Both the position numbers and the translations under genes were made by a program. The notes beneath the pieces are model-generated. The model ran no database searches. It was not told the origin of the DNA and saw only the letters and a list, made by a program, of their open reading frames with translations. A stretch of DNA of 64,000 nucleotides, taken from the NCBI GenBank assembly GCA_963760275.1, contig CAVXCM010000011.1:356463-420462 (forward strand). Reading direction: 5' to 3'. This DNA is from an uncultured Verrucomicrobiae bacterium. Lineage in GTDB: Bacteria > Verrucomicrobiota > Verrucomicrobiia > Limisphaerales > SIBH01. Below, one piece after another: positions 42,641 through 60,053 of this stretch (its first letter is position 1; every line of letters starts with the position of its first letter).

Positions 42641-43934
42641 TCAAGCGGCAGCTTTGTCGCTCTTGGCGCGGATGAGCGGCTTGGCTTCGCCACGCACGGT
42701 GGCAGCGGTAATTTTGATGGCTGCGACGTCATCCCGGCTGGGGATCTCGTACATCACATCGAGCATCAGCCTCTCGATTAGGCTGCGCAGAGCCCGGGCA
42801 CCGGTGCCTTTCTTGATGGCCAGTGTCGGCAAGCTCACGCAAAGCATCGTCGGAGAATTCGAGCTCTACATCTTCAAGCGCCATCAGCTTGGCATACTGT
42901 TTGGTCAGCGAATTCCGCGGCTCAGTCAGAATCTGAACGAGCTGGTCTTCGGTCAGTTGCTCCAGGACAGTCACCATGGGCAGGCGCCCAATGAATTCAG
43001 GAATGAACCCGTAGCTGATCAAGATCTTCCGGCTCCACGTGCTGGAGAATCTCGTCGCGATCGAATTCCGCCACTCTCTGCCCGTGTTCAACCGCACCGA
43101 AACCCATCACGCGATTGCCCAACCGGCGTTGGATGATTTTCTCCAGGCCAACGAACGCGCCGCCACAAATGAAGAGAATGCCGCTGGTATTGACGCGAAT
43201 GTATTCCTGCTGCGGATGCTTGCGTCCTCCTTGCGGAGGCACATTGCACACCGTGCCTTCCAGAATTTTGAGCAAGTGCCTGCTGCACGCCTTCGCCGGA
43301 CACGTCGCGCGTGATCGAAACGTTCTCTGTCTTGCGCGCGATCTTGTCGATTTCGTCGATGTAAACAATGCCACGCTGCGCGCGTTTCACGTCGTAATCG
43401 GAATTCTGAAGCAGGCGCAGGATGATGTTCTCAACGTCTTCACCCACATAACCCGCTTCGGTGAGCGTGGTGGCATCGGCGATGGCGAAGGGCACGTCCA
43501 GGATCCGGGCCAGGGTGCGCGCCAGCAACGTCTTGCCCGAGCCGGTATGGCCGATGAGCAGAATGTTGCTCTTTTCGAGTTCAACCTCGGCATCGCGCTG
43601 GGCCTTGAGTTCATCGCCGCCCTTCGCCTGCGTCGGCTCATGCAGGACGCGCTTGTAATGATTGTGCACCGCCACCGCCAAGTGTCTTCTTCGCCTGGTC
43701 CTGCCCAATGCAGTACTTGTCGAGGTAGTTCTTGATCTCGACCGGCTTGGGGACAGAGTTGATCGAGCGCTGGCTTTTTCGACTCAACGGCAGCAAGTTC
43801 CTTGTCCAGGACGCTTTTGCAGAGGATGACGCAGTTGTCGCAGATGTAAACGCCCGGCCCTGAATGAGCTTCTTCACCTCTGCGTGGGATTTCCCGCAGA
43901 AGCTGCAAAGCGTGATGTTCGTTGGACGCGCCAT
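42641..43934 (-). pseudogene. clpX: ATP-dependent Clp protease ATPase ClpX, broken by ~6 single-base indels (probably sequencing errors)
   Basis: [62 protein letters not shown] and TGARALRS motifs spread across several frames. Confidence 0.9.
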
Positions 43935-43946
43935 CCGGCGTACAAC

Positions 43947-44578
43947 TTACGCCGATGACCGAAGTGCGGTCAGGCAAATTCGTCATCTCTTTGCGGGAAA
44001 CCACGACCTCGTCCACGATGCCCAAACGCCTTGGCTTCCTCGGACGTCATGAAGTTATCGCGATCACACGCTTTCTCCACGACCTCGATCGGTTGGCCGG
44101 TATGTTTTGCCAGAATGTGTTCAAGCGCTGCTTAAGCTTGAGCATGTACTTGACGCGGATCTCCACGTCAGTCGCCTGGCCTTCCGCTCCGCCCAGCACC
44201 TGATGAATCATGATGTTCGCGTTCGGCAGGGCGTAACGTTTGCCCTTCGTGCCGCCCGCCAGCAGAACCGCGCCCATGCTCGCCGCCTGGCCAATGCAAT
44301 AGGTGTTCACGTCGCAGGTCATGAATTGCATCGTGTCGTAGATGGCCAATCCAGCCGTCACGCTGCCGCCGGGAGAGTTGATGTAAAGATGGATGTCCTT
44401 CTTCGGATCGCTCATCTGCAGGAACAAGCAGCTGGGCGATGATGACGTTGGCCACCATGTCGTCGATGGGCGTGCCGAGAAAAACGATGCGGTCCACCAG
44501 CAGGCGCGAGTAAATATCATAACCGCGCTCACCGCGACCGGTCTGCTCGATGACGTGGGGGATTAAGAAATTTTGCAT
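43947..44578 (-). pseudogene. clpP: Clp protease proteolytic subunit ClpP, broken by ~4 indels (probably sequencing errors)
   Basis: [46 protein letters not shown] and G.VD.V motifs across frames. Confidence 0.9.
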
Positions 44579-44651
44579 ATTCAATTCTGGCGACAAATCA
44601 TCGCGCGCGAACCTACCGAAGGCCCATGGGTGCGTCAAGGAACCGCCCCCG

Positions 44652-44804
44652 TCAGAACAGGGAGTAGATGAAGGGAGCCAAGGGAGACGTGGGGGCAAAC
44701 GCCAGAAACAGACCGAGCAACATCAAGATGACTACGAAAGGAACAAGCCACCATTTCTTCTCCTGCCGGAGGAAGAGCAAAAACTCTTTGAAAACGGACC
44801 ACAC
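44652..44804 (-). CDS. 50-aa membrane microprotein, DUF5989/SxtK-like (absent from the ORF track)
   Basis: My translation: [50 protein letters not shown]; KKWWL.P and APFIY.LF match the family pattern. Confidence 0.8.
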
Positions 44805-44889
44805 CACCGCAGTGAAGCATCAAAGAATGCTCATTGAAACTCTATTCAGCATTCTCTGGCACACAGCGTAACCTCACCCTGCCGAGGGG

Positions 44890-47435
44890 TTATTTTTTGT
44901 CCAATTTATCCTCAGGAGCACCAATGACCATGACGCCCTCGGCCCCGGCATTCTCCTCGGGAATGCGCATGTCGTAGAACGAGCGGTAGACAAAGATCAG
45001 GGCGACAAGGAAAAAGAAAATACCAATGCCGAGCCGGTATTGTGATATTTGGGATCGCTCATCGTCACTGCTATTTCCACTGCGAGCAGACCAAAGAGCG
45101 TTGTGAATTTGATCACGGGGTTCAGCGCCACGGAGGAAGTGTCCTTGAACGGATCGCCCACGGTGTCGCCCACGACCGTCGCGGCGTGCAACTCGGTTCC
45201 TTTCTGGCGCAGATCGACTTCGACGATCTTTTTGGCGTTGTCCCATGCGCCGCCTGCGTTGGCCATGAAGATGGCTTGGAACAATCCGAAGAACGCGATG
45301 CCGATCAGGTAGCCGATGAAGAAGTAGGCGTTGAAGAAGGGCAGTGCGAGCGCGAAGCAAAAGACGACGATGAAGATGTTCCACATGCCCTTTTGCGCGT
45401 AGACGGTGCAGATGCGAACGACTTCCTTGCTGTCCTTCTCGGATGCAGTGGTCGCATCGAGCTTCATGTTCTCCTTGATGTAAACGACTGCGCGATAAGC
45501 GCCCGTCACAACCGCCTGGCACGAAGCGCCGGTGAACCAGTAGATCACCGAGCCGCCCATGATGAGTCCGAGAATGATTTCCGGTTGCACGATGCTCAGT
45601 GCGTCGATGACCGGTTTGAAAGGCCCTCCAGCTCCAGCGGCCAACTGCACCTCATACATCTGCTGCAACAGAATGATGATGCCGAACACCATCGTGGTCG
45701 CGCCGACGACGGCGGTGCCAATGAGCACGGGCTTGGCCGTGGCTTTGAAGGTGTTGCCGGCGCCGTCGCCTTTTTCCAGTTGGTGCTTGGCATTCTCAAA
45801 ATCAGGATCGAATCCAAAATCCCGTTCGAATCTCCTCCTTGATGCCTCTGCTTCCCCTCGATCTGGCTCAACTCATAAACCGATTGGGCGTTGTCCGTCA
45901 CCGGGCCGTAGCTGTCCACCGCGATGGTGACCGGCCCCATGCCGAGGAAACCAAAGGCCACCAGACCGAAGGCAAAGATGGGCGCGGCGAACAGGAATTT
46001 CGCCGGCATGAGCGCGAGCAACGCGGCATTCTGGGAGAAATAATACGCGGCGCCCATCAGCGCCATGATGCAAAGCCCCATCCAGAACGCGGAGAAATTG
46101 CCCGCCACGAATCCGGACAGAATGTTCAGCGACGCGCCACCATGCTTGGAGCAATTCGTCACTTCGCGCACATGACGGGAGCTGGTGCTGACGAACACCT
46201 TGGTGAACTCCGGGATCACCGCGCCAGCCACCGTGCCGCAACTGATGATGCACGACAGCACCCACCACAGAGCAGGCTGCGCGGCTCCAGTGGCATCTCG
46301 GAAATCGCCCAGCAGCATTTTGCTCGCGATGAAGGTGACGGCGATGGAAACCGCCGAGGTGATCCAAACGAGATGCGTCAGCGGCGCTTCGAAATCGAAA
46401 TCCTTCTTGCCGCCGAACATGGCTTTGCTCAGGCCTTCGTTCACGAAGTAGGAGACGAGCGACGTCACGATCATCAACGCGCGCATGACGAACAGCCAGA
46501 TGATGAGCGTCGCCACGATCGCAGGCGTGGCCGCCAGCGCCAGCGCGAGGAAGGCGATCAAGCGCCACGCCCGTGACGCCGTAGGTTTCAAAACCGTCCG
46601 CCGTCGGGCCCACGGAGTCGCCCGCGTTGTCGCCGGTGCAGTCCGCGATGACGCCGGGGTTCTTCGGATCGTCTTCGGGCAGTTTGAAAACGATCTTCAT
46701 CAGGTCCGAGCCGATGTCCGCAATCTTGGTGAAGATGCCGCCGCAAATGCGCAGCACGCTCGCGCCGAGCGATTCACCGATGGCGAATCCGATGAAGCAC
46801 GGGCCGACCAGATCGCGCGGCAGAAACATCAGGATGCAAATCATGAAGAACAATTCCACCGCCACGAGCAGCAACCCCACGCTCATGCCGGAGCGCAGCG
46901 GAATGCCGAGCGTCGCCAAGCGGATTGCCTTTCAGCGCGGAGAACGCGGTGCGCGAATTGGAGACGGTGTTGATGCGAATGCCGAACCACGCCACGCCGT
47001 AGGAACCGAGGATGCCCAGGATGGAGGCCAGCAGGATCACAACGACATGCCCAACCGAGTTGCCTCTGCAGAGGCGCCGAAATAATAAACCATGCACGCC
47101 GCGATGAGCAGCCAGAGGATGGCGAGGAACTTACCCTGCGTGAACAGATAGGTTTTGCACGTCTCCCAAATCGTGTGGGAGACGTTCGCCATGCTGGCGT
47201 GAACGGGCAGCGCTTTGGTTTGCAAATATTGAACGAGGCCGAACGCAGCGCCGACGGCACAGATGCCAATGCCGATGTACATGAGCATGGCACCGCTCAT
47301 GCCGCCCAAGCCGTCGAACCGAACGGCGCTCAGATCCGGAATCTTGATGTCAGCTTCGCTGGCGAAAAGATTCGGTGTGAATGTGAAAAGAAGAAGAAAC
47401 AGAAGGCCCCAAAACGGACGTATTAATTTGCCCAT
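44890..47435 (-). pseudogene. hppA: Membrane-integral (H+/Na+) pyrophosphatase, broken by at least 5 indels (probably sequencing errors)
   Basis: GGIFTK.AD.G.DL, EDDPKNPGVIAD..GDN.GD, DSYGP..DNA, GNTFKA, N.GGAWDNAKK and VGDTVGDPFKDT motifs across six overlapping ORFs. Confidence 0.9.
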
Positions 47436-47517: not shown

Positions 47518-48723
47518 TCAAATCGGCAGGGTGAAATAGAATTGCGCTCCCTGTCCTGTCTCGCTCTCCACCCATACCTTTCCGCCATGCGACTGAATGA
47601 TGTGCTTGACGATGGCAAGTCCCAAACCAGTGCCGCCCGCGTCGCGTGAACGCGCCTTGTCCACACGATAGAACCGTTCGAAAACTCGCTCCCGTGCCTC
47701 GGCCGGGATGCCGGGGCCGTCGTCCGATACACAGAGTTCCACCTGCCCAGGGATCGCACGGCCCTTGACCGTCACTCGGCCATTGAGGCGCCCGTACTTG
47801 ATAGCATTCTCGATCAGGTTGACGAGGACTTGTTCCAATCGATCCGGATCGGCCCGCCCGTGCAGGGCCTCAGGAATTTCATTCACAACGAGCGTGCCTC
47901 GTTCCTTCGCCCTCGTTTGAAGCTCCGCGATCAGCGACGCGGTGAACGCCTTCAAGGGAACGGTTTTTAGCTGCAACGTAATTTGGCCGGACTCCAGGCG
48001 TGAAATGGTCAGCAGGTCCTCGATTAGATTGGTCAGCCGATTGGAGTGCCGCTCGATGGTGCCCAAGAATTTGGCTGATGTCACAGGGTCAGTGACCGCC
48101 CCATCCAGGAGAGTTTCCACGTAGCCCTTGATCAGGGAGAGGGGGGTGCGCAGCTCATGGCTGACATTGGCGACAAATTCACGACGCGTATTTTCCAACT
48201 GTCGAATGCGTGTGAGATCATGAAAAACGAAGATGGTGCCTTGCTGGCGGTTTTCCCGATCCACCACCGTGGCCGCGCTAACTTCGAAATACCTCGGCTC
48301 CATTCCGCCGACTTCCAACTCGCAACTCAAAACATTCCTCTCCGTGTCCAGACGGGCAAGCAGTTGCGATAACTCCGGACGGCGAAAGGCCTCGTTCAAG
48401 GTGCGGCCGCGTACATCCACATTCAGGGCCAATTGTTTTTCGAGAGATTGATTAACCAGTTGGACTCGGCCGCTGCGGTCCAGCAGCACCACGCCTTCGA
48501 CCATGCTGTTAAATAAGGTTTGTCGCTCGGCTTTGGCTTGGTCTTCCAATTCACGCTGATGCCTGGCTGCAATGTCGCGTTCGTTACGCATGGCATGAAG
48601 CTGCGAATGAGCGGCGCGCAGTCTGGATTGGTAGAAGAGGACGATTCCAAGCAGCAGCAGCGCAATGCCCCCCGCCGCAATTGGCCATCCCCAGCTTGTT
48701 ATTTCAGCAAGGTCGACATTCAC
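47518..48723 (-). CDS. phoR: Phosphate regulon sensor kinase (1 TM, PAS, HisKA, HATPase)
   Basis: EFVANVSHELRTPL, NLIENAIKY and FERFYRVDKARSR..GGTGLGL motifs; follows phoB and pst. Confidence 0.88.
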   Translation of the reverse strand: MNVDLAEITSWGWPIAAGGIALLLLGIVLFYQSRLRAAHSQLHAMRNERDIAARHQRELEDQAKAERQTLFNSMVEGVVLLDRSGRVQLVNQSLEKQLALNVDVRGRTLNEAFRRPELSQLLARLDTERNVLSCELEVGGMEPRYFEVSAATVVDRENRQQGTIFVFHDLTRIRQLENTRREFVANVSHELRTPLSLIKGYVETLLDGAVTDPVTSAKFLGTIERHSNRLTNLIEDLLTISRLESGQITLQLKTVPLKAFTASLIAELQTRAKERGTLVVNEIPEALHGRADPDRLEQVLVNLIENAIKYGRLNGRVTVKGRAIPGQVELCVSDDGPGIPAEARERVFERFYRVDKARSRDAGGTGLGLAIVKHIIQSHGGKVWVESETGQGAQFYFTLPI

Positions 48724-49406
48724 GCTTTATCGACGAAGCGGTATCCCACCCCGCGGACGGTGTCGAGATGAGAAGCCGCCTTGCCCAGTTTGTCGCGCAA
48801 CCGCCGCATGTGCGTATCCACCGTGCGGGTGTCGATGAGGTTGTCGTATTCCCAAACGTCCCGAAGAAGCGCCTCACGAGACTGGACTCGCCCCCGGCGC
48901 TCAGCGAGGACCGTGAGCAACTTGAATTCGGTGGCAGTCAGGTCAACACGCTTTCCCTCCACGAGAATCTCATGCCGCGGGATATCGATCGTGAGATCTG
49001 CGAAATCCATGTTCTCGGGTTCGGGTTCGGTCGGCGCGCGGCGGCGTAGCAACGACTTAACCCGCAACACTAACTCCCGCGGACTGAAAGGCTTCGTCAC
49101 ATAGTCGTCCGCTCCCAATTCGAGCCCCAACACCCGGTCAATCTCGCCGGCCTTCGCCGTGAGCATGATGATCGGAATAGTCGCGGTGATTGGCTCCCGG
49201 CGCAGGGTCTTGCACACTTCCAATCCGTCCACCTCTGGCAGCATCACGTCCAGGATGACGAGAGCGGGATGCGACGCGCGCGCTTTCTTGATTGCCTCCT
49301 CACCGTCCGCTGCGACGACTACGTCGTAGCCGGCCGCCTTCAAGTTGTATTGAATCAGCTCCAGCGCATCGGGCTCGTCATCGACAACTAGAATCTTGGG
49401 CTTCAT
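48720..49406 (-). CDS. phoB: OmpR-family response regulator PhoB
   Basis: ILVVDDE, LDVMLP, MLTAK, GADDYVTKPFSPREL, RTVDTH.RRLR.KL and TVRG.GY motifs. Confidence 0.88.
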   Translation of the reverse strand: MKPKILVVDDEPDALELIQYNLKAAGYDVVVAADGEEAIKKARASHPALVILDVMLPEVDGLEVCKTLRREPITATIPIIMLTAKAGEIDRVLGLELGADDYVTKPFSPRELVLRVKSLLRRRAPTEPEPENMDFADLTIDIPRHEILVEGKRVDLTATEFKLLTVLAERRGRVQSREALLRDVWEYDNLIDTRTVDTHMRRLRDKLGKAASHLDTVRGVGYRFVDKA

Positions 49407-49462: not shown

Positions 49463-50278
49463 TCAGCCGTATCGACCCTCGATATACTCCGCTGTCTTTG
49501 GGTTGCTGGGATTCAGGAATAACTGAGCCGTCGGGCTGTGCTCCACCAGTTTTCCCATGAGCATGAAGATACATTCGTCGCTGGCGCGGCGAGCCTGCGC
49601 CATGTTGTGAGTCACGATGACGATGGTGTATTTGCCCTTCAGATCAAACATGAGTTCCTCGATCGCGCGAGTTCCTTCCACATCGAGGGCGCTACACGGT
49701 TCATCCATCAGGATGATCTCCGGCTTCAAAGGCAGGAGTCGGGCGATGCAAAGTTTTTGCTGCTGTTCGAGCTGGAGCGTGATGGCCTTTTGATCCAGCC
49801 GATCCTTGAGGTCCTTCCAAAGGCCCGTCTCCGTCAGGGCTTTCTCCACCGCATCATCCAAGTCCGACTTCTTCAGCGATGAGGAAGGGTTGTGAACTCG
49901 CAAGCCGAACACGACATTTTCGTAAACAGAGATGGGGAGCGGGTTGGGCCGTTGGAAAACCATTCCCACCGACTTGCGCAGCTCGATTAGCGATACGTCC
50001 GGGTCGTAGATGTTCTTTCCGTGAAGCTGGATCAACCCCTTGGTCGTTACGTATCCGTAGCGTTCGTTCACGCGATTGAAGCAGCGCAGCAACGTGGTCT
50101 TGCCGCATCCACTCGGACCGATCAGGGACGTGATGATCCCCCGTTTGATATCGGTGCTCACGTCGAGGAGAGCCTGGAACTTGGCGTACCAGAGATTCAC
50201 ATCGCGCGTGATGATCGCGTATTGCTTATCCAAATCCGCCACGGAATCCGGCGGCGCGATGGTGGCGTCAGTGTTCAT
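49463..50278 (-). CDS. pstB: Phosphate ABC transporter ATPase
   Basis: GPSGCGKT, VGMVFQ.PNP, MDEPCSALD, VTHNM.QA.R and Y..GRYG motifs; ABC signature degenerate (LQLEQQQ). Confidence 0.92.
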   Translation of the reverse strand: MNTDATIAPPDSVADLDKQYAIITRDVNLWYAKFQALLDVSTDIKRGIITSLIGPSGCGKTTLLRCFNRVNERYGYVTTKGLIQLHGKNIYDPDVSLIELRKSVGMVFQRPNPLPISVYENVVFGLRVHNPSSSLKKSDLDDAVEKALTETGLWKDLKDRLDQKAITLQLEQQQKLCIARLLPLKPEIILMDEPCSALDVEGTRAIEELMFDLKGKYTIVIVTHNMAQARRASDECIFMLMGKLVEHSPTAQLFLNPSNPKTAEYIEGRYG

Positions 50279-51042
50279 CCGAAAATTCCATTTACGTAAT
50301 CAGCCGTCCGCTTGTCCTTCGTGCGATCGCTGAAGATGACGTCATTGCGGTCGAGTTCAATGATGTCGCCGTTCCAGAGGAACATGGTGCGGGCGGCGAG
50401 GCGACGCGCCTGTTGCACCAGATTAGTCACGAGGATAATGGTCATCTCCTTCTTCAATTCCTTCAGCACATCTTCGATTCGCATGGTGGTGACGGGATCG
50501 ATGGCGATGGAAAACTCGTCGAGGCAGAGAATCTCCGGCTGATGCGACAGCGCGCGCGCGATTGTGAGGCGCTGTTGCTGCCCACCGCTGAGCTTGGTGC
50601 CAAGTGAATCAAGCCGATCCTTCACCTCGTCCCAGAGCGCGGCCTGGCGGAGACATTTTTCCACATGGGCATCGAGGAAGGACTTGTCGTTTACGCCCGA
50701 GGAGCGGGGGGCGAACGCGACATTCTCGTAAATCGTGAGGGGCAGACCGACGGGCAAGGGCGCGACCATGCCAATCTTTCTTCGCAATTCGTAAACGTTG
50801 CGCACTTTTTTCACGTCCTCGCCATCCACCTTGATGGTGCCAGTCATCCGGCTGCCCGGCGTGAACTCCAAGGTCCGGTTGATGGCGCGAAGCAACGTGG
50901 TCTTGCCGGATTGAGCGGGACCGATGATGGCAAAAATCTCGTTCGGCTCGATGTGAAAGGAAATGCCATGATGAACCTCCTTCGACCCGTAAAAGGTCCG
51001 GAGATTGGCGACTTCGACCTTATGTTGACCAGTGGCAGGCAT
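50275..51042 (-). CDS. pstB: Second phosphate ABC transporter ATPase
   Basis: GPAQSGKTT, LWDEVKDRL, LSGGQQQRL.IARAL and LDE motifs; own ATG at 51042, just after the pstA stop. Confidence 0.88.
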   Translation of the reverse strand: MPATGQHKVEVANLRTFYGSKEVHHGISFHIEPNEIFAIIGPAQSGKTTLLRAINRTLEFTPGSRMTGTIKVDGEDVKKVRNVYELRRKIGMVAPLPVGLPLTIYENVAFAPRSSGVNDKSFLDAHVEKCLRQAALWDEVKDRLDSLGTKLSGGQQQRLTIARALSHQPEILCLDEFSIAIDPVTTMRIEDVLKELKKEMTIILVTNLVQQARRLAARTMFLWNGDIIELDRNDVIFSDRTKDKRTADYVNGIFG

Positions 51043-51050
51043 GGGTTCAG

Positions 51051-51948
51051 TTACCATTTCTTCCGGGAACGGAGATAAACGCGAAACGCAATGGCCGTGG
51101 CGTTTACAATCAAAACCACCGCGACCAACACGGTCGGCAATGGCGTAGGGCGTCGCCTTCGGCACGTTATTCGCCTGCGTGGCGATGTAATAAAGATGCA
51201 TGGAGAGCGCCATGCATTGGTCCTTGATCGGGTGATAAAGAAACAGGCCGGTGTTATCCAGGAGCTTGTAAGTAGCCACCCCAGTCAGCATCACAGGCGC
51301 CGTTTCACCCGCCGTCCGGCTCACTTGCAAGATCACGCCAGTCAGAATCCCGCTGATCGAATTGGGTAGCACGATGCGCCAGATGGTTTGCCAGCGCGTA
51401 GCACCCACGTTCCAACACGCCTCGCGAAACTGCCGGGGAACGGCCGATAAGGCTTCCTTGGTCGATGCGATAATGACTGGCAAGGTCATGACGGCGAGCG
51501 TCAGGGCAGCGGCGATGATGGATTTTTTCCCGTTGTTGAAGTTCGCAAAATAGACGAATGCGCCGACGCCGAAGAGCCCATGCACGATGGAAGGGACGCC
51601 CGCAAGGTTGACCACGGCCAGATTGACGACGCGGGTGAACCAATTTTCACGAGCGTATTCGCTCAAGTAAACAGCCGCGAGTACGCCGATCGGCGCGGAG
51701 ATAACGAGGGAAAAGAAGACGATGTAAATGGTGCCAACGAGCGCGGCCCAAATACCACCTTTCGCTCCTCCGCTGCGCGGGTTCTCGGTGAGGAACTCCC
51801 AGGAAATAGCAGGAGCGCCTTGCACCACGAGATAGCTGACGATCATGACAAGCGGAATGACCATGGCGGCCGCCATGCCGCCAAAGAAGCATTTCGCGAT
51901 CAGTTCGTTCCGCTTTTTCTTACGTATGAAAGGTGTCTCTACAAACAT
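51051..51948 (-). CDS. pstA: Phosphate ABC permease PstA (one-base insertion near 51135)
   Basis: GGI..AL.GT, YLSEY, LAGVPSIV.GLFG and R.AGETAP motifs; natural C-terminus ...VYLRSRKKW* lies in the shifted frame, ending at 51051. Confidence 0.88.
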
Positions 51949-51954
51949 GGCGTC

Positions 51955-52906
51955 TTACTTTTTGCGGATTCCCTTTACGATGAAGTCGGCCGTGAGGTTC
52001 ACCACAAAGGTGATGGAAAAGAGCAGCACGCCAATCAGGAAAAGCACCTGGTAGTGCGACGAGCCTTGCGAGGTCTCTCCCAGTTCCGCGGCGATTGTCG
52101 CGGTCAATGTCCGGACTGGATCGAAAATTGAGTGCGGAATGTTGCACGGAATGCCCCGTGGCCATCAGTACGGCCATCGTTTCGCCGATCGCGCGACCCA
52201 CGCCCAGTAACACGGCAGCGAGCAAGCCGTTCTTGGCGGCAGGGAGAAGCACGCGATAAACGAGCTGCCATTTCGTGGCGCCCAGCGCGATCCCGGCTTC
52301 GCGATAACTGTCAGGTACCGCTTTCAGTGCGTCTTCACCGATACTGACCATGATTGGTACGCTCATGAGGGCTAGCAGCAACGCGGCATTCAAAAGATTC
52401 ACGCCGACCGGCACGTGGAAAGTACTGATGAGTATCGGGCTCATCACGCTCAACCCGATGAATCCCCAAACGACGCTGGGAATGGCGGCCAGCAATTCAA
52501 TCACGATCTTGAGTGTCTCCTTCACTTTGCCGGTGCAGAACTCGGAGACGAAGATGGCAGCTCCCAAGCCAAAGGGGACGGCAATCAGCATCGCCAGCAT
52601 GGTGACGCTCAACGTGCCGACAATGAGCGCGCCGGTGCCGTACTTGGGTTGCACCGACGAGGTGGGGATCCATTCCTTGCTGAAAAAGAACTCGCTGAAA
52701 TTGAGCTTCGAGAGAAAAGGAGCGCCTTCTTTGAAGACAAAGAAGAAGATTCCAAAGACGAAGATAATCGCACTAAAACCACAGATATAAACAATGCCTT
52801 CGATAACGCGCTCCCCAAACTGGGCAAGCCCGCTCCGTCGATGGCGCTTCACAGGCGCGAGGGATTTTTGGGCAGGGACCGTCGGTGCTGTATCGGTTTG
52901 TAACAT
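51955..52906 (-). CDS. pstC: Phosphate ABC permease PstC (one-base insertion near 52145)
   Basis: GT, IELLAAIPSVV.G, ALGATKWQ and GRAIGETMAVLM..G motifs; C-terminus TLTATIAAELGE...ADFIVKGIRKK* lies in the shifted frame. Confidence 0.88.
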
Positions 52907-52963: not shown

Positions 52964-53872
52964 TTACTTCTTCGGCAGCGGCACGTAGCCCGTGCTTTCG
53001 ACGATTTTCTGCCCCTCCTCCGACATGGTCCAATCAATGTACTGCTTCAGATGCGGGGCAGGTTCGCCGGCGGTGTAAAAAAAGAGCGGCCGCGCAATTG
53101 GATAGGTTTTGTCCTGGGTCGTGGCGATGCTCGGGGCGACCGCGGGCTGACCTTTGGCTTTCGAAACTTTCAACATTTTGACAGACGGGTTGGCGTAGCC
53201 CATGCCGGAGTAACCGATGGCGTTCGGTGTCTTGCCGACGAGTTCCACGACGTCTTTCGAGCCGTTCATGTCGAGGGAGCCGAGCTTGAACTCGTTCTTC
53301 TTACCGACGACCGCTTCCTTGAAATACTCGTACGTTCCGGAATTGTTCTGGCGGCTGACACGGATGATTTCATCGCCTTTCGCTCCAGGAATGCTGGTGA
53401 CGCCGAGGTCGCTCCATTTGGTGATCTTGCCATCAGCGCGGTAAATATCACCCAATTGCTCGACGGTGATCTCGTTGAGCGGATTATTTTTATGGACGTA
53501 AACCGAGAGGGCATCGAAACCAACGATATATTCCTTCGCGTCGAGCTTTCGCTTCTCCTTCAACTCCGCCGACTCCTTTTCTTCGATATGCCGGCTGCTG
53601 TTGGCGAGCTCAGCAGTGCCATTGATTAATCCCTTTATCCCAACACCCGAACCGCCTCCACCGACTTCGATGAGCGTGTTCTTGTCGACGGCGCCGTAAG
53701 CCTCCGCCCAAGCAGCTGCGAGATTGACCATCGTGTCGGAGCCGATGTTGGCGACAGTGACCTTCTTGCCGGAAGAACCGCCGCTCTCAGTGCCTGAAGA
53801 GGAGTCTTTCTTGCCGCAACCCGTCAGCATCAAGGCCGCTGCAGCCACTGTCATAAGGAACTTCATTTTCAT
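52964..53872 (-). CDS. pstS: Phosphate-binding lipoprotein PstS
   Basis: Lipobox LTGC; GSDT, GGGSG.G, SSR, R...SGT, IGY and YPIARPL motifs. Confidence 0.93.
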   Translation of the reverse strand: MKMKFLMTVAAAALMLTGCGKKDSSSGTESGGSSGKKVTVANIGSDTMVNLAAAWAEAYGAVDKNTLIEVGGGGSGVGIKGLINGTAELANSSRHIEEKESAELKEKRKLDAKEYIVGFDALSVYVHKNNPLNEITVEQLGDIYRADGKITKWSDLGVTSIPGAKGDEIIRVSRQNNSGTYEYFKEAVVGKKNEFKLGSLDMNGSKDVVELVGKTPNAIGYSGMGYANPSVKMLKVSKAKGQPAVAPSIATTQDKTYPIARPLFFYTAGEPAPHLKQYIDWTMSEEGQKIVESTGYVPLPKK

Positions 53873-53879
53873 AATTTTG

Positions 53880-54983
53880 TTAATCGCTGTCTTCGACCAA
53901 GGCCTGCACGAGCTCGCGCACGTGCGTGTTGATGTATTCAAATGTCTGCTCGTAAGCATCCCGCACGTCCGCCAGGGAACCCGGACGCGTCGAGGGATCC
54001 TCGACCGCCCAGTCCAATGCCACGGTCTTGGTCGGCGCGGGCGGGAATACTTTCCTGGCGTTTTTCGCCAACGCGATGATGACGTGATAGTGATCGATGT
54101 TCGGAATCTGGCTGATGGACTTGCTCTTCTGCTGAGCTATTTCGATCCCCTTTTCCTTCAGGAACTCAACCGTGCGCCAGTCGAGGGCGCGTGATTCGAG
54201 GCCGGCGCTGCTGAAAACAATTCCTTGTGTCACAAGGCTATTGGCAATGGCTTCGGCCATTTGGCTGCGGCATGAATTATTCTCGTCGACGAACAGGATA
54301 CGCAGCACTTCGGCCCCCTTGTGCTTGATGTACTCTCCCGTGCACATGTAGAGGGTTTCCTCGCAAATATTTTTCGCCTGATCGGCCACTCGCTCAAAGC
54401 GGCGAGCGATGGTCTGCAACGGATTAAGCGCACTGATTGGAATGGCACCGGACTGAAACAGGCCCAAAAGTTCGACATCGAGTTTCCCGCGTAACACGTC
54501 GGCCTTGTCTTCCTCCACCATCGCTTCACGCGCCAACGCAACGTCCTGCTCGATGAACGCCCTCATGGCGTCGCGCAGCATGGGAATGGAAATCCCGGCA
54601 AGAGCGCGGAAATCGTCCAGGGGCAACTTATCGTGCACGCTACTCACCTTGAGCACCTGGCGGGAAATGCTCTCGGCATAATCGCCAATGCGCTCCAACT
54701 CCAAATTGATCTTGATGGTGGCGTAGGCAAACCGGAGGTGCCCCGCCACGGGTTGTTGTCGCACGAGAAATTCGAGACACAGCCGGTCCACCTCTTTCTC
54801 CAGCTCGTCGATGTATTGGTCACGAAGGATGACGGAGTAGGCGAGGGTCAGGTTTTTATCCAATAAGGCAGTGAGGCTGTCCCGCAAAGCCCGGTCCGCC
54901 AATTGGGCCATTGCCGAAACTTTGCTGCGGATCAGGTCAATGTCTCGCTGCAGATGCTCTTCGTAATGAGTCGTGGCTTTCAA
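53880..54983 (-). CDS. phoU: PhoU fused to a C-terminal LMW-PTP/ArsC-like domain
   Basis: QPVA.HLR, LERIGD.A and ERVADQA.NI.E (PhoU), then ILFVDENNSCRSQMAEA, SAG and W..EDP (LMWPc fold); start uncertain. Confidence 0.88.
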   Translation of the reverse strand: MKATTHYEEHLQRDIDLIRSKVSAMAQLADRALRDSLTALLDKNLTLAYSVILRDQYIDELEKEVDRLCLEFLVRQQPVAGHLRFAYATIKINLELERIGDYAESISRQVLKVSSVHDKLPLDDFRALAGISIPMLRDAMRAFIEQDVALAREAMVEEDKADVLRGKLDVELLGLFQSGAIPISALNPLQTIARRFERVADQAKNICEETLYMCTGEYIKHKGAEVLRILFVDENNSCRSQMAEAIANSLVTQGIVFSSAGLESRALDWRTVEFLKEKGIEIAQQKSKSISQIPNIDHYHVIIALAKNARKVFPPAPTKTVALDWAVEDPSTRPGSLADVRDAYEQTFEYINTHVRELVQALVEDSD

Positions 54984-54996
54984 CGAGAGGACATAT

Positions 54997-55045
54997 ATGA
55001 CACCGGTGTTACGCCCAAAGGTCGCCCAGGTTACAATTGTGCAAC
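54997..55045 (-). promoter_or_regulatory. Pho-box-like 11-bp-phased repeats upstream of the phoU-pst operon
   Basis: Minus-strand GTCAT (54997-55001), GTAAC (55008-55012), GTAAC (55030-55034) and GTTGC (55041-55045), all on one 11-nt register. Confidence 0.65.
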
Positions 55046-55083
55046 GCGTTGACGGGCCGGCAGGCGGGAAAGGGAAATGGGCG

Positions 55084-55608
55084 CTAGAAAATTTCGGCGC
55101 CTCGGTCCAAGTGTCGCGCGATATCGAGGCGTTCGGTAGCATTCTCTATCACGTGGCGGCGGAGACCAGCGGGCAGGTCTCGAATCTGGCTCCCTTCCTC
55201 GAAGCGGGTTTTCAAAGCGCGGGTCAGCACGTTGGCCACGGACCACTTGAACACGCCACGGTTTTCCTGCCGAAACCGTTTCATCTCGGCCGGAACGGGA
55301 GGAAGCTTCGGACGCACCATCCGAAATTCAGGGTTGTCCGAGCAATGACGGGCAATTTCCTCTGCGCCAAAAATGCCTGTGGCATAGGCGAGGGTCATGG
55401 TGGCAAGCAGGGCCTTGGGCTCGAAGTGAGGCAACTGCCGCAATTGTTCCAGCAAGTCCGGGTTGGTCCAATCTACGGAATTAAGGTCCGCAAGAATCCA
55501 TTCCGCCAACTGCGCAACAGGCACCCACGCCCCCAAGTCATGGGGAATAGCCAGTTGGTGTTCCCATACCATCCTCGAAGGAATCTCGACTGTTGCCGGT
55601 TCAATCAT
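55084..55608 (-). CDS. Hypothetical protein resembling the N-terminal DUF772 domain of IS1182 transposases, with no DDE domain
   Basis: P.ALL..MT.AYATGIFGAEEI...C..N..FR...P......RFR..N pattern; ORF ends soon after it; start uncertain. Confidence 0.6.
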   Translation of the reverse strand: MIEPATVEIPSRMVWEHQLAIPHDLGAWVPVAQLAEWILADLNSVDWTNPDLLEQLRQLPHFEPKALLATMTLAYATGIFGAEEIARHCSDNPEFRMVRPKLPPVPAEMKRFRQENRGVFKWSVANVLTRALKTRFEEGSQIRDLPAGLRRHVIENATERLDIARHLDRGAEIF

Positions 55609-55735
55609 CTGCAGCGAACATCGCACTTTTGTGTGACAAGGCGATGTCGCGATAATCACGTTTGAGCGACATCATAAGAGCGGCAGAATCTACAAAGCCG
55701 TCCTCGTCTTAAGCGAATAAGAGGCTCGGCGAAAA

Positions 55736-57094
55736 TTAAAACCTCCACATGGCATCGATCAGCAAGCGCCCCGTTTGGCTTTCCGTCTCCTGCCCGTTCA
55801 CGACGCTCGGGTCGATCAACTCAGACAGGACGTAGGTGAGGGTCAGCGTGAAGGCATCGGCCGGTGAGTAACTCGCCCTGAAGATGTGCCCTTTTACGTT
55901 GGTGCCGGCACGATAACCAGAGCCTGTAGCTGAGTTGGCAAAGGCGGTTTGATAAAAAGCCCCGTAATCGGAATCAACGACCTCCTCATACCAGGCATCG
56001 CGGTCCAGATAACGCCAGCGGTAGCCCAGTTCCCACGTCCCTTTCTTGCCGGACTTACCAGCCGTCGCCCCCACCTCGTAGCCAGTATTGTTTCGCGACG
56101 GTCCAAAATTATTCACGAACGTTCCGGCCATCCTCACCGGGAATTTGCCGTTATAACCCGGCATTGATGCAAATGAGTACGTTACCGCAGCATCCAACAC
56201 CAGCGGCGTGTAGTTGTGCACCAAAGTCCCGTCCGCGGCGCGGGTGTTGCCAATATTGAGGTTCGGCACGGAGAAATTGGTGAGCGACCGCTCGTCCGTA
56301 ATGGCAAGGAAGGCGGCCCCCATTGAACTCTCCCACGCTGGCGCCCATTTAGCATCCCATCGCGCCTGGACCCCCATCATGAATGGATCCTGATCGGACT
56401 GTTGCCCCTGGCTAATCTCATCCAACAGGAAAAAGCCACCCGCGAACTTCAAGGCGTGTTGCTGGTTAAGAGTGTAGGTGCTGCCAACGCCAAACCCTTC
56501 TGGCGTATAATCCTCGTCAAACACCAAGGAGGATAGGACGAAGGGATTTTCCATTTTGCCCACCGTGCCGCTGAGCTTCCATGCATCGTGGTTGATCGGC
56601 GTCCATTTGCCGTAAGCCTGATCTACCCACAGGAATTTTTTGGATCCATTATCCTGGAGAGTGCTGTTGCCCGAAATTGGATCCCCGCCGAAGTTTGACT
56701 GTGGATCGCCAGAGGTGAGACGAAATCCCAACTCCAAGCTGTCTTTCAACGTGGCAATCGCACCAACCCGAAGCCGATAACGCATACGAGTGCGGTCATG
56801 ATTCGGAGCGCCCGCCGTGTCGTTGTCCGTGTAGATGCCATCGAAGCGCCCTCGAAAATCCCCGTAGATTCGGAGGGAAGTGACATAGTCTGGCAGCCCA
56901 GTCTTGGCTCGAAAGGACCTGTCGTAACCGGATGCGGATTCTTTCTTAAGCTCATCGGCTTCCTGCTTCGTGAGCACTCCTTTCGAAACCAACTTCTCCA
57001 GCAACGCATCGTTGGATTGTGCTGTGGAGGATATCGTTCCGAAGGAAAGGAGAGTCGCAGAAATGGCAGCTACTCCGAGTGCGTTCAACTTCAT
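55736..57094 (-). CDS. Putative (phosphate-selective) outer-membrane porin, Porin_5-like
   Basis: Signal peptide; LL.KLV.KGVLT..EA, GDFR.R, R.RYRLR, DQAY, GKMENP, D.D..PEG and TN.KGH motifs; terminal WRF. Confidence 0.85.
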   Translation of the reverse strand: MKLNALGVAAISATLLSFGTISSTAQSNDALLEKLVSKGVLTKQEADELKKESASGYDRSFRAKTGLPDYVTSLRIYGDFRGRFDGIYTDNDTAGAPNHDRTRMRYRLRVGAIATLKDSLELGFRLTSGDPQSNFGGDPISGNSTLQDNGSKKFLWVDQAYGKWTPINHDAWKLSGTVGKMENPFVLSSLVFDEDYTPEGFGVGSTYTLNQQHALKFAGGFFLLDEISQGQQSDQDPFMMGVQARWDAKWAPAWESSMGAAFLAITDERSLTNFSVPNLNIGNTRAADGTLVHNYTPLVLDAAVTYSFASMPGYNGKFPVRMAGTFVNNFGPSRNNTGYEVGATAGKSGKKGTWELGYRWRYLDRDAWYEEVVDSDYGAFYQTAFANSATGSGYRAGTNVKGHIFRASYSPADAFTLTLTYVLSELIDPSVVNGQETESQTGRLLIDAMWRF

Positions 57095-57119: not shown

Positions 57120-57157
57120 GTGACGACACAAGTGCGATTTCGTAACGGATGGGTTAC
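57120..57157 (-). promoter_or_regulatory. Pho-box-like repeats upstream of the porin
   Basis: Minus-strand GTCAC (57120-57124), GTTAC (57142-57146) and GTAAC (57153-57157) on an 11-nt register. Confidence 0.55.
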
Positions 57158-57243: not shown

Positions 57244-57261
57244 CGTAACCATTCTGTAACA
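57244..57261 (+). promoter_or_regulatory. Pho-box-like direct repeat just upstream of DUF47-pit
   Basis: CGTAACCATTC-TGTAACA: GTAAC at 57245 and 57256 (11-nt period), ending 11 nt before the ATG. Confidence 0.6.
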
Positions 57262-57271
57262 ACTAGGGGCC

Positions 57272-57898
57272 ATGTTCTCATTGCAAAAGTTTCTAGGCAA
57301 AGATGATCAGTTTTTTGAACTTCTTCAGGCTAGCGCGGAAGAAGGTTTGCATAGTGTCAGAGCATTGAACCGGATCCTGACGAACCCATCCATCACGCCC
57401 ACCCTGGACGAATTCGTGGCGTCCCGTCGCAAAGATAAGGAAATCACCAACCAAATCAGCGAACTACTGGTTAAGACCTTCGTGACAGCATTGGAGCGGG
57501 AGGACATCGAGGCGCTCTCCAACGTCCTCTACAAGGTCCCCAAGACAATCGAGAAATTTGCGGAACGCTATATACTCTGCGCGCCCCGCCTGCGCGGAGT
57601 GAAGTTCGACAAGCAGATGCTCATGATGGAAGAGGCCATTAACATCGTGGTTTCGATGTTGAAAGAACTGAAGAAAAACGATCTCAGCTCCATTTCAAAA
57701 CAGAACACGAAGCTTCAACGCCTGGAAGGGGACGCGGACAAGCTCATGCTGGAAGAATTCCGCGAACTCTACAGCGGAAAACACGAACCCCTTACGGCCA
57801 TGGCGCTTAAGGACCTCTACGAACTCCTGGAGAAAGTCTTCGACCGATGCCGCGATGCCGGCAATGTGATTTCCAATGTCGTGTTGAAACATTCGTGA
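57272..57898 (+). CDS. DUF47 / PhoU-like Pit accessory protein
   Basis: FF.LL, TFVT.LEREDI..L, LE..AD and Y..LE...DRC.D..N motifs; precedes pit. Confidence 0.9.
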   Translation: MFSLQKFLGKDDQFFELLQASAEEGLHSVRALNRILTNPSITPTLDEFVASRRKDKEITNQISELLVKTFVTALEREDIEALSNVLYKVPKTIEKFAERYILCAPRLRGVKFDKQMLMMEEAINIVVSMLKELKKNDLSSISKQNTKLQRLEGDADKLMLEEFRELYSGKHEPLTAMALKDLYELLEKVFDRCRDAGNVISNVVLKHS

Positions 57899-57905
57899 AG
57901 CGACC

Positions 57906-59285
57906 ATGACGCTGATCATCACGGTTATCGTCGTCGCATTGATTTTCGAGTACATCAATGGCTTCCACGACACGGCCAATTCAATCGCCACGGTTGTCTC
58001 TACGAAGGTTTTAACGCCGCGCCAGGCGATCATTCTCGCCGCCCTGACGAATCTTTTGGGCGCCTTCTTCGGGCTGGCTGTAGCCAAGACGATTTCGAGC
58101 GGTCTGGTGGAATCGTCATTCGTGACGCAAGAGGTGATCATCTGCGCACTGCTCGGCGCCATTAGCTGGAATTTGCTCACGTGGTGGTTTGGGATTCCCA
58201 GCAGTTCCACTCATGCTCTCGTGGGCGGATTGGTGGGAGCGACGCTCGCTGCCGCCGTCTGCATCGCCGCCGCCAAACCGCTGGTCAACAAAGCCGGGCA
58301 GCCGGTGTCGGTCTGGAGCTCGATCAAGTGGAAGGAAGTTAAAGAGAAAAAAGATCACAGCCTCACTGCGGCGCCGCCAGAGGTAATTGCCGCGCTGGGC
58401 GACCGGGTGAACACAAACGGCACCCACTCCCTCCAAATAGGAACCAATAAAGTCCAAGCCGTAGTGTTCTCCGGCCGTGTGAAGATGGTCAGGGAGAAAA
58501 TGAAAATGGATCGCGGCGGAGTCCTGCACAAGGTGGTCATTCCAATGATCACTTCGCCCCTGATCGGTTTTGTCGGAGGGTTGTTGCTGATGAGCCTTCT
58601 TTACCTGCTGCTTCTGAAAGCCCGCCCCGATTGGGTGAACCGCGTCTTCGGCAAGCTTCAGCTGGTGAGCGCCGGGTACATGGGTTTCAGCCACGGCATG
58701 AACGACGCTACGAAGACGATGGGCATCATCACCCTCGCCTTGGTGGCCGCAACGAACACCGGCGTTTTGAAAGATATTTCCCCGGCATTTTCCTTTCTCG
58801 TCACCCCGGAAGGTTCGGACCCGCTGCATCTTCCTGTTGGCAGTCAACTCATCAGCTGGCTGCCTTCATGGCTGCAATTCGGCTACATGCCACCCATTGG
58901 TGACGCCAAAAACCAGCTGGTTCCGCCTTGGGTTGTCGTCACCTGTGCCTTGACCATGGCTGCGGGCACCGCGGCGGGCGGCTGGAAAATTATTAAAACA
59001 ATGGGCCACAAAATGGTGAAGCTTCAGCCTGTGCATGGTTTCGCGGCGGAAACCACAGCCGCAACCGTCCTTGCCGTCACCGGCACTTTGGGAATGCCAG
59101 TATCCACCACTCATGCAATCACGACCTCGATCCTGGGTGTAGGCTGCGCGAAAAGGCTTAGCTCGCTGAAGTTTAAGGTAATCGAGCGTATCATCTGGGC
59201 GTGGATCTTTACGATTCCCGCCACGGCGGCGGTGGCCTTTGCGATGGTTTGGCTCAGTAATAAGCTCGGGTTGATTCGTTTTTGA
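57906..59285 (+). CDS. pit: Inorganic phosphate transporter (PiT family)
   Basis: NGFHDTANSIAT, GIPSSSTHAL.GG, SHGMND..K.MG, GG..I.KT.G and G.PVSTTH motifs. Confidence 0.93.
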   Translation: MTLIITVIVVALIFEYINGFHDTANSIATVVSTKVLTPRQAIILAALTNLLGAFFGLAVAKTISSGLVESSFVTQEVIICALLGAISWNLLTWWFGIPSSSTHALVGGLVGATLAAAVCIAAAKPLVNKAGQPVSVWSSIKWKEVKEKKDHSLTAAPPEVIAALGDRVNTNGTHSLQIGTNKVQAVVFSGRVKMVREKMKMDRGGVLHKVVIPMITSPLIGFVGGLLLMSLLYLLLLKARPDWVNRVFGKLQLVSAGYMGFSHGMNDATKTMGIITLALVAATNTGVLKDISPAFSFLVTPEGSDPLHLPVGSQLISWLPSWLQFGYMPPIGDAKNQLVPPWVVVTCALTMAAGTAAGGWKIIKTMGHKMVKLQPVHGFAAETTAATVLAVTGTLGMPVSTTHAITTSILGVGCAKRLSSLKFKVIERIIWAWIFTIPATAAVAFAMVWLSNKLGLIRF

Positions 59286-59438: not shown

Positions 59439-60053
59439 ATGGCTTACCAATACGTGAACAAGCAGGAAGCTCTCTTTGCAAAAGTGAAGGGCAAGACCGG
59501 CAAGATTTCCGACAAAACTCACGAAGAGCACCTCAAACTTTATACGGGTTACATCAACAAGACGAATGCGATCCTGAAGGAACTGGAAACGCTTTCCGCC
59601 ACACTGGATCCCGCAAATCCGGCGCACGCCAACCAGATTTACTCAGAGATTCGCTCGCGCAAAGTTGATTTCACCTTCGCACTTGGCGGCGTGATCAACC
59701 ATGAGTTGTATTTCAACAACCTCGGTGGCAAGGGCGGGCCCGCAACCGGCAAAGTTGCGGAATTGATTAACAAGAGCTTCGGCAGTTTCGACGCTTACAA
59801 AAAAGACCTCAAGGCCACAGGGATTGCCGCGCGCGGCTGGGTGTGGACTGGTTACGATGCGCAGACTGGTCTTCTCTTCAATTACTTGGGCGACGCGCAA
59901 AACACCTTTCCCGTCTGGGGGGTCAAACCGGTGCTCGCCCTCGACGTCTACGAACATGCGTACTTCGCCGACTTCTTCACAGCTCGCGCCGTCTACATCG
60001 ATGAGTTCATGAACTTCATCGATTGGGATGCGGTCAATGCGCAACTTGGCTGA
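59439..60053 (+). CDS. Fe/Mn superoxide dismutase family protein
   Basis: H..H..LY.GY, NHELYF.NL, FGS, GW and LDVYEHAY..D motifs; AAGGA RBS. Confidence 0.9.
   Translation: MAYQYVNKQEALFAKVKGKTGKISDKTHEEHLKLYTGYINKTNAILKELETLSATLDPANPAHANQIYSEIRSRKVDFTFALGGVINHELYFNNLGGKGGPATGKVAELINKSFGSFDAYKKDLKATGIAARGWVWTGYDAQTGLLFNYLGDAQNTFPVWGVKPVLALDVYEHAYFADFFTARAVYIDEFMNFIDWDAVNAQLG

Follow-up and report, generated by a model that had tools for sequence, protein, structure and literature searches.

A PhoU protein fused to an apparent ArsC-type pseudoenzyme heads a pst-phoBR operon with two complementary-degenerate PstB subunits

We analysed a stretch of 64,000 nucleotides (the window) from contig CAVXCM010000011.1 of an uncultured Verrucomicrobiae bacterium, in which a minus-strand gene at 53880..54983, denoted here phoU-LMWP, codes for PhoU fused to a domain of the low-molecular-weight phosphatase (LMWP) fold. 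The gene specifies 367 residues plus a stop codon from a TTG start and is delineated by its open reading frame (ORF) and by Pfam and NCBIfam profiles. The minus-strand frame 53880..55142 is open throughout. The TTG at 54983 opens the conserved N-terminus MKATTHYEE..., and homologues also begin at this place, with MKAT.. or MTHYE... On the same strand, the fusion gene heads the series pstS-pstC-pstA-pstB1-pstB2-phoB-phoR. The original prediction, a reading of the letters and their ORFs, had placed it at the head of such an operon and had described its product as PhoU followed in frame by an LMW-phosphatase/ArsC domain with Asp instead of the catalytic Cys; our analyses bear out both statements.

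The PhoU half, residues 1-218 (54330..54983, minus strand), contains two PhoU repeats, whose E/D-xxx-D motifs read ELERIGDY and FERVADQ. Pfam PF01895 matches it in two stretches (119 bits versus a cut-off of 23.5, E 1.2e-34), and the NCBIfam profile TIGR02135 (phoU_full) scores 148.4 bits, above its cut-off of 130.25. In the 86-row family alignment described below, E97, R98, G100, D101 and Y102 of repeat 1 and R198 of repeat 2 are invariant, and D201 of repeat 2 is kept in at least 90% of the members. After a linker of ~10 residues comes the ArsC-type pseudoenzyme domain, residues 228-362 (53898..54302, minus strand), delimited by profiles, ArsC alignments and a fold match. LMWPc (PF01451) covers residues 229-358 with 57 bits (cut-off 23.2, E 3.4e-15), and the arsenate reductase profile TIGR02691 (arsC_pI258_fam) gives 71.3 bits in this part, below its cut-off of 174.3. 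The motifs ILFV-D-ENNSCRSQMAEA, SAG and DWAVEDP are all present in the protein.

An AlphaFold2 model of the fusion protein, computed from the 86-row alignment, has a mean predicted local distance difference test (pLDDT) score of 94.3 and a predicted template modelling (pTM) score of 0.64, which indicates two well-defined domains whose mutual position is less certain. The modelled PhoU half consists of six long helices spanning residues 6-215, and Foldseek matches it to 1T72 (TMt 0.95, root-mean-square deviation 1.8). The C-terminal domain matches Bacillus subtilis ArsC 1JL3 (TMt 0.85) and 8P6M (TMt 0.87). Profiles, predicted folds and the coordinates first proposed for the gene thus agree on an in-frame fusion. 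The two repeats above the cut-off, the E/D-xxx-D motif in each of them and the all-helical bundle identify the PhoU half, and the LMWPc score and the structural matches identify the ArsC/LMWP fold of the other.

The degenerate P-loop, D233-E-N-N236-S-C-R239-S240, was located by sequence and ArsC alignment at 54264..54287 (minus strand), with the Asp233 codon, GAC, at 54285-54287. In HMMER alignments Asp233 stands opposite the nucleophilic Cys of the ArsC structures 2L17 (FVCKRNSCRSQMAE) and 1JL3 (FLCTGNSCRSQMAE). The positions of the redox Cys pair fall in HVIIALAKNARKVFPP and are occupied by Ala and Asn relative to 2L17, and by Ala and Phe relative to 1JL3. The alignments also show Asn236, Arg239, Ser240, the SAG loop and W-x-x-D329-P330, of which D329-P330 (53994..53999, minus strand) is the counterpart of the 'DP' acid motif of ArsC and of LMW protein tyrosine phosphatases (PTP). 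In place of a C-x5-R-(S/T) P-loop with its nucleophilic Cys, the protein therefore has Asp233 together with Arg239 and Ser240. It lacks both the redox Cys pair and the curated profile score of thioredoxin-coupled ArsC enzymes, and it has no Cys to act as an LMW protein tyrosine/arginine phosphatase, although Arg239 and D329-P330 are in place. Because the nucleophile and the redox pair are both missing from these alignments, the domain is very probably non-catalytic as ArsC or PTP, one of the two possibilities that had been proposed from the Asp and the absent Cys pair.

Asp233 is not a read error, because turning GAC into a Cys codon needs two base changes and Asp is common to 120/120 close homologues. 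An assembly artefact as the source of the fusion was likewise rejected, the protein being full-length in 120/120 best database matches and at 80/80 loci listed. We also discarded a haloacid dehalogenase (HAD) or receiver-domain reading of 'LFVDE': the motif is D-E-N-N, without DxDx(T/V), and there is no HAD or Response_reg match at E<=0.01. Among public reads, no RNA data set is listed with the sequence; a small share of one soil run gave five short contigs, none of them over the Asp codon or the frameshift sites of the operon.

Homologues were collected from a 5.8-billion-protein database, of which the best 120 matches (62-100% identity) were examined, and by a scan of one genome per species, which returned at least 80 loci. 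Twenty-three database proteins, including that of the window, and 63 loci make up the 86-row alignment. PF01895 and PF01451 are combined in 120/120 best matches, and 80/80 loci listed encode the full-length fusion. By record title, the carriers among these loci belong to Verrucomicrobiota, Acidobacteriota, Myxococcota, Gemmatimonadota, Rhodothermales and Alpha-, Beta- and Gammaproteobacteria, and they include Accumulibacter, Dechloromonas, Thiodiazotropha and Magnetococcales. The family is nevertheless patchy, as a domain-only query (E<=1e-20) matched just 4/301 sampled genomes of the window's phylum, its own genome included. A test set in advance was whether homologous fusions keep Asp at the nucleophile position. 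They do: the residue is Asp in 120/120 best matches and in 80/86 aligned members, and the 80 loci listed have Asp there 73 times, Glu three times, Ser twice, and Gly and Cys once each. All six departures in the alignment are single tips of a maximum-likelihood tree.

The other pocket residues fall into two groups. Ala243 and Trp325 are invariant (86/86 each), and Asn236 (75/86), Ser240 (68/86) and the SAG loop (Ser259 80/86, Ala260 79/86, Gly261 84/86) are well conserved. Arg239 is found in only 40/86 members, with Leu in 20, Gln in 7, Ala in 6 and others in the rest, and its state changed at least 13 times on the maximum-likelihood tree. Asp329 of the DP motif is present in 49/86 and absent or gapped in 37/86, 27 of these being gaps. 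At position 234, 56/86 members have an acidic residue, Glu or Asp, and 30/86 do not. In the best 120 matches, which are closer to the window protein, the P-loop Arg position has Arg in 105, Leu in 13, and Val and Pro once each. The claim that the anion-binding Asn, Arg, Ser and DP residues are retained therefore holds for the window protein and its near clade, but not for the Arg and the DP Asp across the family. These two residues carry out the chemistry of ArsC and LMW-PTP. Since only 40/86 members have Arg239, with at least 13 changes of state, and 49/86 the DP Asp, the function shared by the family cannot be that of a canonical, Arg-dependent oxyanion site.

Selection nonetheless appears to hold the domain. 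Mean pairwise identity is 0.38 for the LMWP domain versus 0.46 for the PhoU half, with a correlation of 0.89 over 3655 pairs, from which we conclude that the domain evolves only slightly faster than the PhoU half and is under purifying selection. By the residue counts above, this selection acts on Asp233 and the residues that shape the P-loop, and not on Arg239 or the DP acid. Taken together, the alignments support a domain that is non-catalytic and selected.

Loss of Arg239 is in places accompanied by another basic residue. Arg or Lys directly follows SAG, at position 262, in 19/46 members without Arg239 versus 0/40 members with it; neither Arg239 nor Arg/Lys262 is found in the remaining 27 of the 46. 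The basic residue after SAG occurs in 19/19 members of one Arg-less proteobacterial type-B clade (operon types are defined below). We rejected this pattern as statistical covariation, since the 19 cases form one clade and count as one evolutionary event.

A search for shorter proteins gave 23 matches from 36 candidates. Ten were inspected, and they comprise eight fragments of fusions, seven beginning within the PhoU C-terminus and one within the LMWP domain, and two canonical ArsCs with 31-34% identity. No genuine stand-alone Asp-type domain could be established in this way; short Asp-type cluster representatives exist, many of which begin mid-domain. Current databases name the fusion proteins PhoU or 'phosphate transport system protein', and their fragments arsenate reductase or phosphatase. 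A search of full texts outside subscription journals retrieved no description of the fusion or of the degenerate PstB. The PhoU-pseudo-ArsC fusion family is thus real, widespread and seemingly undescribed.

Downstream of the fusion gene, all on the minus strand, the operon continues with pstS (52964..53872), which codes for a lipoprotein-type phosphate-binding protein and has its ATG 7 bp past the phoU-LMWP stop, and with pstC (51920..52906), in which the assembly has a frame change near 52143-52148. A single 557-aa ORF (50275..51948) covers pstA (~51136-51948) and pstB1 (50278-51066). Next come pstB2 (49463..50278), a phoB-type response regulator gene (48720..49406) and a phoR-type histidine kinase gene (47518..48723) with PAS, HisKA and HATPase domains. 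The fusion lies within this two-PstB type of pst operon at 80/80 loci listed. In one major clade, type A, to which the window belongs, the order is phoU-LMWP, pstS, pstC, pstA, pstB1, pstB2, and in the other, type B, it is pstS, phoU-LMWP, pstC, pstA, pstB1, pstB2.

The two PstB proteins have lost different parts of the ATPase machinery. PstB1 of the window has neither the Q-loop Gln (GMVAPLP) nor the H-loop His (LVTNL) and keeps LSGGQ, and PstB2 has canonical Walker A, Q-loop, Walker B and H-loop motifs with a degenerate signature, LQLEQ. The pattern recurs among the loci listed. A PstB1-type gene is present at 69/80, the remaining 11 stopping short of that point; its Q-loop Gln is replaced by Pro in 69/69 and its H-loop His by Asn in 68/68, and the Walker A Lys and LSGGQ persist in 69/69. 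For PstB2, 54/54 covered sequences have the Q-loop Gln and 38/38 the H-loop His, and in 41/41 L-x-L-E takes the place of LSGG as the signature. The losses are complementary, the Q- and H-loop residues being gone in PstB1 and the signature in PstB2. ATP-binding cassette (ABC) ATPase dimers have a head-to-tail geometry. Because of this geometry and the complementary losses, a PstB1/PstB2 pair would have one consensus and one degenerate ATP site, provided that the two proteins form the heterodimer that their sequences suggest.

Frame splits are also seen in ClpX, in ClpP and in an H+-pyrophosphatase region (43387-47085), and the host genome assembly is 70% complete in 15 contigs. The frame changes in pstC (near 52145), between pstA and pstB1 (~51066-51136) and at 43387-47085 look like assembly indel errors rather than pseudogenes. 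About 39 kb away, the same genome carries a canonical porin-pstS-pstC-pstA-pstB-phoU operon (L088; G000:C11:443000-456000), with a 420-aa PstC, a single PstB that has all motifs and a plain 221-aa PhoU. It also encodes a separate, Cys-complete ArsC. Our reading is that the fusion gene encodes a second, specialised PhoU beside the plain one. Four of five other carrier genomes searched also have a plain PhoU. In one complete Dechloromonas genome the only PhoU-domain matches are the two in the fusion, so the fusion can be the sole PhoU. A third LMWPc domain of the host genome (L085; G000:C3:180046-180468) scores 113.6 bits within a 722-aa open frame and may represent a phosphatase joined to a further domain.

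The origin of the fusion was approached through members that still have the Cys, sought with a domain query among representatives of 50%-identity clusters. Such proteins were found, and two of them, the rare metagenomic proteins P0280 and P0288, are catalytically complete. P0280 has the full ArsC set (C-x5-R, redox pair and DP) and matches the window protein at 37% identity over the full length. In the tree of PhoU halves, six plain PhoUs and P0288 are split from all fusions with support of 100/99, and the remaining 38 fusions form the sister group of P0280 (100/96). In the tree of LMWP halves, the 38 family domains form one clade (100/99) to which P0280 is attached weakly (58/78). Within this clade the Cys forms (L035 and P0197) and the Ser/Gly forms diverge first, and types A and B, almost all of them with Asp, are sisters (97/90). 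Two fusion variants (L144 and L145) have Ser at the nucleophile position and retain one former redox Cys (TLCDGA).

The halves of P0288 group with plain PhoU (100/100) and with stand-alone ArsCs, respectively, and its gene (L090 969-2084) follows a single canonical pstB. On this evidence P0288 is an independent PhoU-ArsC fusion. No relative of P0280 above 38% identity was found in 301 genomes of the phylum of L035. In the simplest history, PhoU would have been joined to a working ArsC, the redox pair would have been lost before the nucleophile, and Asp would have been fixed once, ahead of the split between types A and B. The P0280 fusion may still have had a separate origin, as few plain PhoUs were compared. 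The repeated joining of PhoU to ArsC suggests a functional link between the control of Pst and arsenate/phosphate chemistry. Arsenate enters cells via phosphate transporters.

Upstream of the fusion gene, at 54997..55045 (minus strand), are phased Pho-box-like repeats (GTAACaccggtGTCAT and GTTGCacaattGTAAC). Their heptamers are spaced at an 11-bp phase within 100 bp of the fusion start. The block is conserved in two relatives, L001 and L002 (78% protein identity), in which it is nearly invariant relative to the window, with the heptamers TTGTCGC / TCGTAAC / (GCGACCT) / CTGTAAC / GTGTCAT, and in which it is preceded by a terminator-like hairpin. Two perfect GTHAC-N6-GTHAC sites (57142-57157 and 57245-57260) lie in the divergent promoter region between a porin gene and phoU_div-pitA. 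They are the only perfect sites in the window and give 4 strand-hits versus 0.30 expected, a number reached in 0/100 shuffles. With one mismatch allowed, the window gives 22 hits versus 11.4 expected, and two of the further sites lie directly upstream of the fusion gene. Pho-box-like repeats of the GTNAC type thus precede the operon, as the original prediction had it, and recur at the porin/pitA intergenic region; their sequence suggests that PhoB may bind them.

The porin gene (55736-57094, minus strand) is homologous to that at 11727-12959 of L088, so that a Porin_5-family gene precedes both pst operons of the genome. This outer-membrane protein is probably a phosphate-starvation porin. Genes for PhoU_div (DUF47) and for a phosphate transporter of the PHO4/PitA type diverge from the porin gene, at 57272-59285 (plus strand). 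Between the porin and fusion genes, a 191-aa ORF (55084-55659, minus strand), found in the same place in L001 and L002, has a sub-threshold match to the DUF772 transposase profile (21.8 versus 23.1 bits). Farther along, a 204-aa ORF (59439-60053, plus strand) resembles Fe/Mn superoxide dismutase by eye. Elsewhere in the window, an identical 16-mer (ATTACAGCTCTGTCAC) occurs at 20231-20246 and 20909-20924, 678 bp apart, and may mark a local repeat or duplication.

Compared with canonical PhoU proteins (that of Escherichia coli, and 1T72 of A. aeolicus, 4Q25 of P. aeruginosa and 2I0M of S. pneumoniae), the fusion has the same helical bundle (TMt 0.93-0.95), the same two repeats with E/D-xxx-D motifs and the same setting in a pst operon beside phoBR. 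It differs from them in its extra 140-aa C-terminal domain, in being the first or second gene of the operon and not the last, and in being paired with a two-PstB importer while a plain PhoU and a canonical pstSCAB coexist in the same genome. Of the thioredoxin-coupled ArsCs (S. aureus pI258 1LJL and B. subtilis 1JL3), it shares the LMWP fold (TMt 0.85 to 1JL3) and keeps NSCRSQMAE, the SAG loop and W-x-x-DP, and the best solved sequence match to the domain is Synechocystis ArsC 2L17 (E 1.1e-14). Unlike these enzymes, it has Asp for the nucleophilic Cys, neither redox Cys and 71 versus 174 bits with the curated profile. The Cys-complete fusions P0280 and P0288 have the same two-domain order, and the PhoU half of P0280 is on the family side of the 100/99 split; in contrast with the family, they retain C-x5-R, the redox pair and DP.

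Two adjoining pstB genes in one pst operon are also known from Firmicutes, namely pstB1/pstB2 in E. faecalis and pstBA/pstBB in B. subtilis, as described in PMC12096839 and PMC11466899. The subunits of the fusion operon differ from these tandem PstBs in being complementary-degenerate, and these Firmicute operons have a plain PhoU or, in B. subtilis, none that is known. More generally, the fusion resembles pseudophosphatases, in which a dead phosphatase fold is kept as a regulatory module, and its importer resembles ABC transporters with one consensus and one degenerate nucleotide site. No report of a pseudophosphatase domain or of a degenerate ATP site in the Pst/PhoU system was found in the literature covered outside subscription journals.

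What the domain does can be approached from the PhoU half. According to PMC4423584, PstB and the PhoR PAS domain are both interaction partners of E. coli PhoU. By homology, the PhoU half of the fusion would sit between the Pst ATPase and the PhoR PAS domain and restrain both when phosphate is sufficient, with a docking to PstB and PhoR like that of PhoU. The C-terminal half derives from a thioredoxin-type arsenate reductase that has very probably lost catalysis. In it, the carboxylate of Asp233 may take the place of the Cys thiolate or of the bound oxyanion, so that the P-loop cradle would stay fixed and filled. The LMWP domain would then adapt PhoU to a Pst importer with a PstB1/PstB2 heterodimer ATPase, or to PhoR. 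Both the structural role of Asp233 and a contact of the domain with PstB1/PstB2 are inferred. We tentatively favour, at somewhat less than an even chance, this reading of the domain as a regulatory or docking module without a small-molecule ligand. Two observations argue for it: the family as a whole can do without Arg239 and the DP acid, and the domain strictly co-occurs with the degenerate PstB pair, plain PhoUs being found with single canonical PstBs.

Several points weigh against a docking module. Its co-occurrence with PstB1/PstB2 could reflect shared operon inheritance and not contact. A residue that binds a ligand or a metal would also be expected to show such a strong preference for Asp over Ser, Ala or Gly. 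The residues that shape the ArsC pocket, Asn236 (75/86), Ser240 (68/86) and the SAG loop, stay conserved. The Arg or Lys after SAG in the Arg-less type-B clade hints that positive charge is still wanted in the pocket, which counts only as one event, the 19 cases being a single clade. A complex prediction of PstB1, PstB2 and residues 224-367 with alignments of 36 rows each, run without controls, scored 0.00 and speaks neither for nor against such a module.

The same pocket residues lend some weight to a built-in oxyanion sensor, as the original prediction had envisaged. The former ArsC pocket would reversibly bind cytoplasmic phosphate or arsenate, and its occupancy would alter the restraint of PhoU on PstB1/B2 and PhoR, so that internal inorganic phosphate (Pi) would be read directly. 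The domain goes back to an enzyme that holds arsenate or phosphate in its P-loop; the window protein and most of its near clade retain Asn, Arg, Ser and DP (Arg in 105/120 close matches and in most of type A), and Asn236, Ser240 and the SAG pocket shapers are conserved family-wide, with the basic residue after SAG in 19/19 members of the Arg-less type-B clade. The native nucleophile of PTP and ArsC enzymes is a thiolate. Asp keeps this charge and need not repel an oxyanion, and even weak, millimolar binding would suit cytoplasmic Pi. Nevertheless, the P-loop Arg supplies most of the oxyanion binding in ArsC/PTP enzymes, and it is absent from 46/86 members after at least 13 changes. Furthermore, 27/86 members have no basic residue at either 239 or 262, and 37/86 lack the DP Asp or have a gap in its place. 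A sensor would fit the unexplained cytoplasmic P signal for PhoB/PhoR in Salmonella (PMC11389368), and we regard it as possible but doubtful.

The sensor reading can be taken further. The former ArsC domain would be the cytoplasmic oxyanion sensor of the Pho system, its Asp-lined P-loop binding Pi or Pst-imported arsenate; acting through PhoU, it would close the asymmetric PstB1/PstB2 pump and switch PhoR off. It would have arisen from an active arsenate reductase tethered to PhoU that detoxified arsenate at the mouth of the transporter. As a whole, this scenario strikes us as rather unlikely.

Alternatively, Asp233 and Glu234 could bind Mg2+ or Mn2+, perhaps as a metal-phosphate site, in extension of the metal binding that Gardner et al. 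in 2014 reportedly found for E. coli PhoU. Position 234, which adjoins the near-invariant Asp233, is Glu or Asp in 56/86 members but non-acidic in 30/86. In ArsC and LMW-PTP, the backbone amides of the P-loop point inward and form an anion hole, not a cation site, and a metal site seems improbable. Residual catalysis with Asp as nucleophile, as a phosphatase or as a phosphoryl acceptor, e.g. on PhoR~P, PhoB~P or acetyl phosphate, is very improbable: Asp rather than Ser, Ala or Gly does prevail in two large clades, and a Cys-to-Asp mutant of PTP1B is said to have been characterised by Romsicki et al. in 2003, but the HAD-type DxDx(T/V) motif is missing, the family tolerates the loss of Arg239 and of the DP acid, and the profile matches are to LMWPc/ArsC only.

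How the Pst-PhoU-PhoR complex perceives phosphate is a standing question. A 2024 study presents cytoplasmic P as controlling PhoB/PhoR in Salmonella and describes both the signal and its receptor as unknown (PMC11389368). A PhoU that carries a domain derived from an oxyanion enzyme is a natural experiment in this respect, and an easily purified candidate for Pi or arsenate binding. The family also preserves a stepwise record of the passage from enzyme to pseudoenzyme, with Cys forms at its base, Ser and Gly forms in between and Asp fixed in two large clades. Among the carriers of the fusion system are Accumulibacter and Dechloromonas, which accumulate polyphosphate. Should the domain be a mere docking module, a pseudoenzyme-bearing PhoU together with an ABC importer that would have one degenerate site would still be new for Pst.

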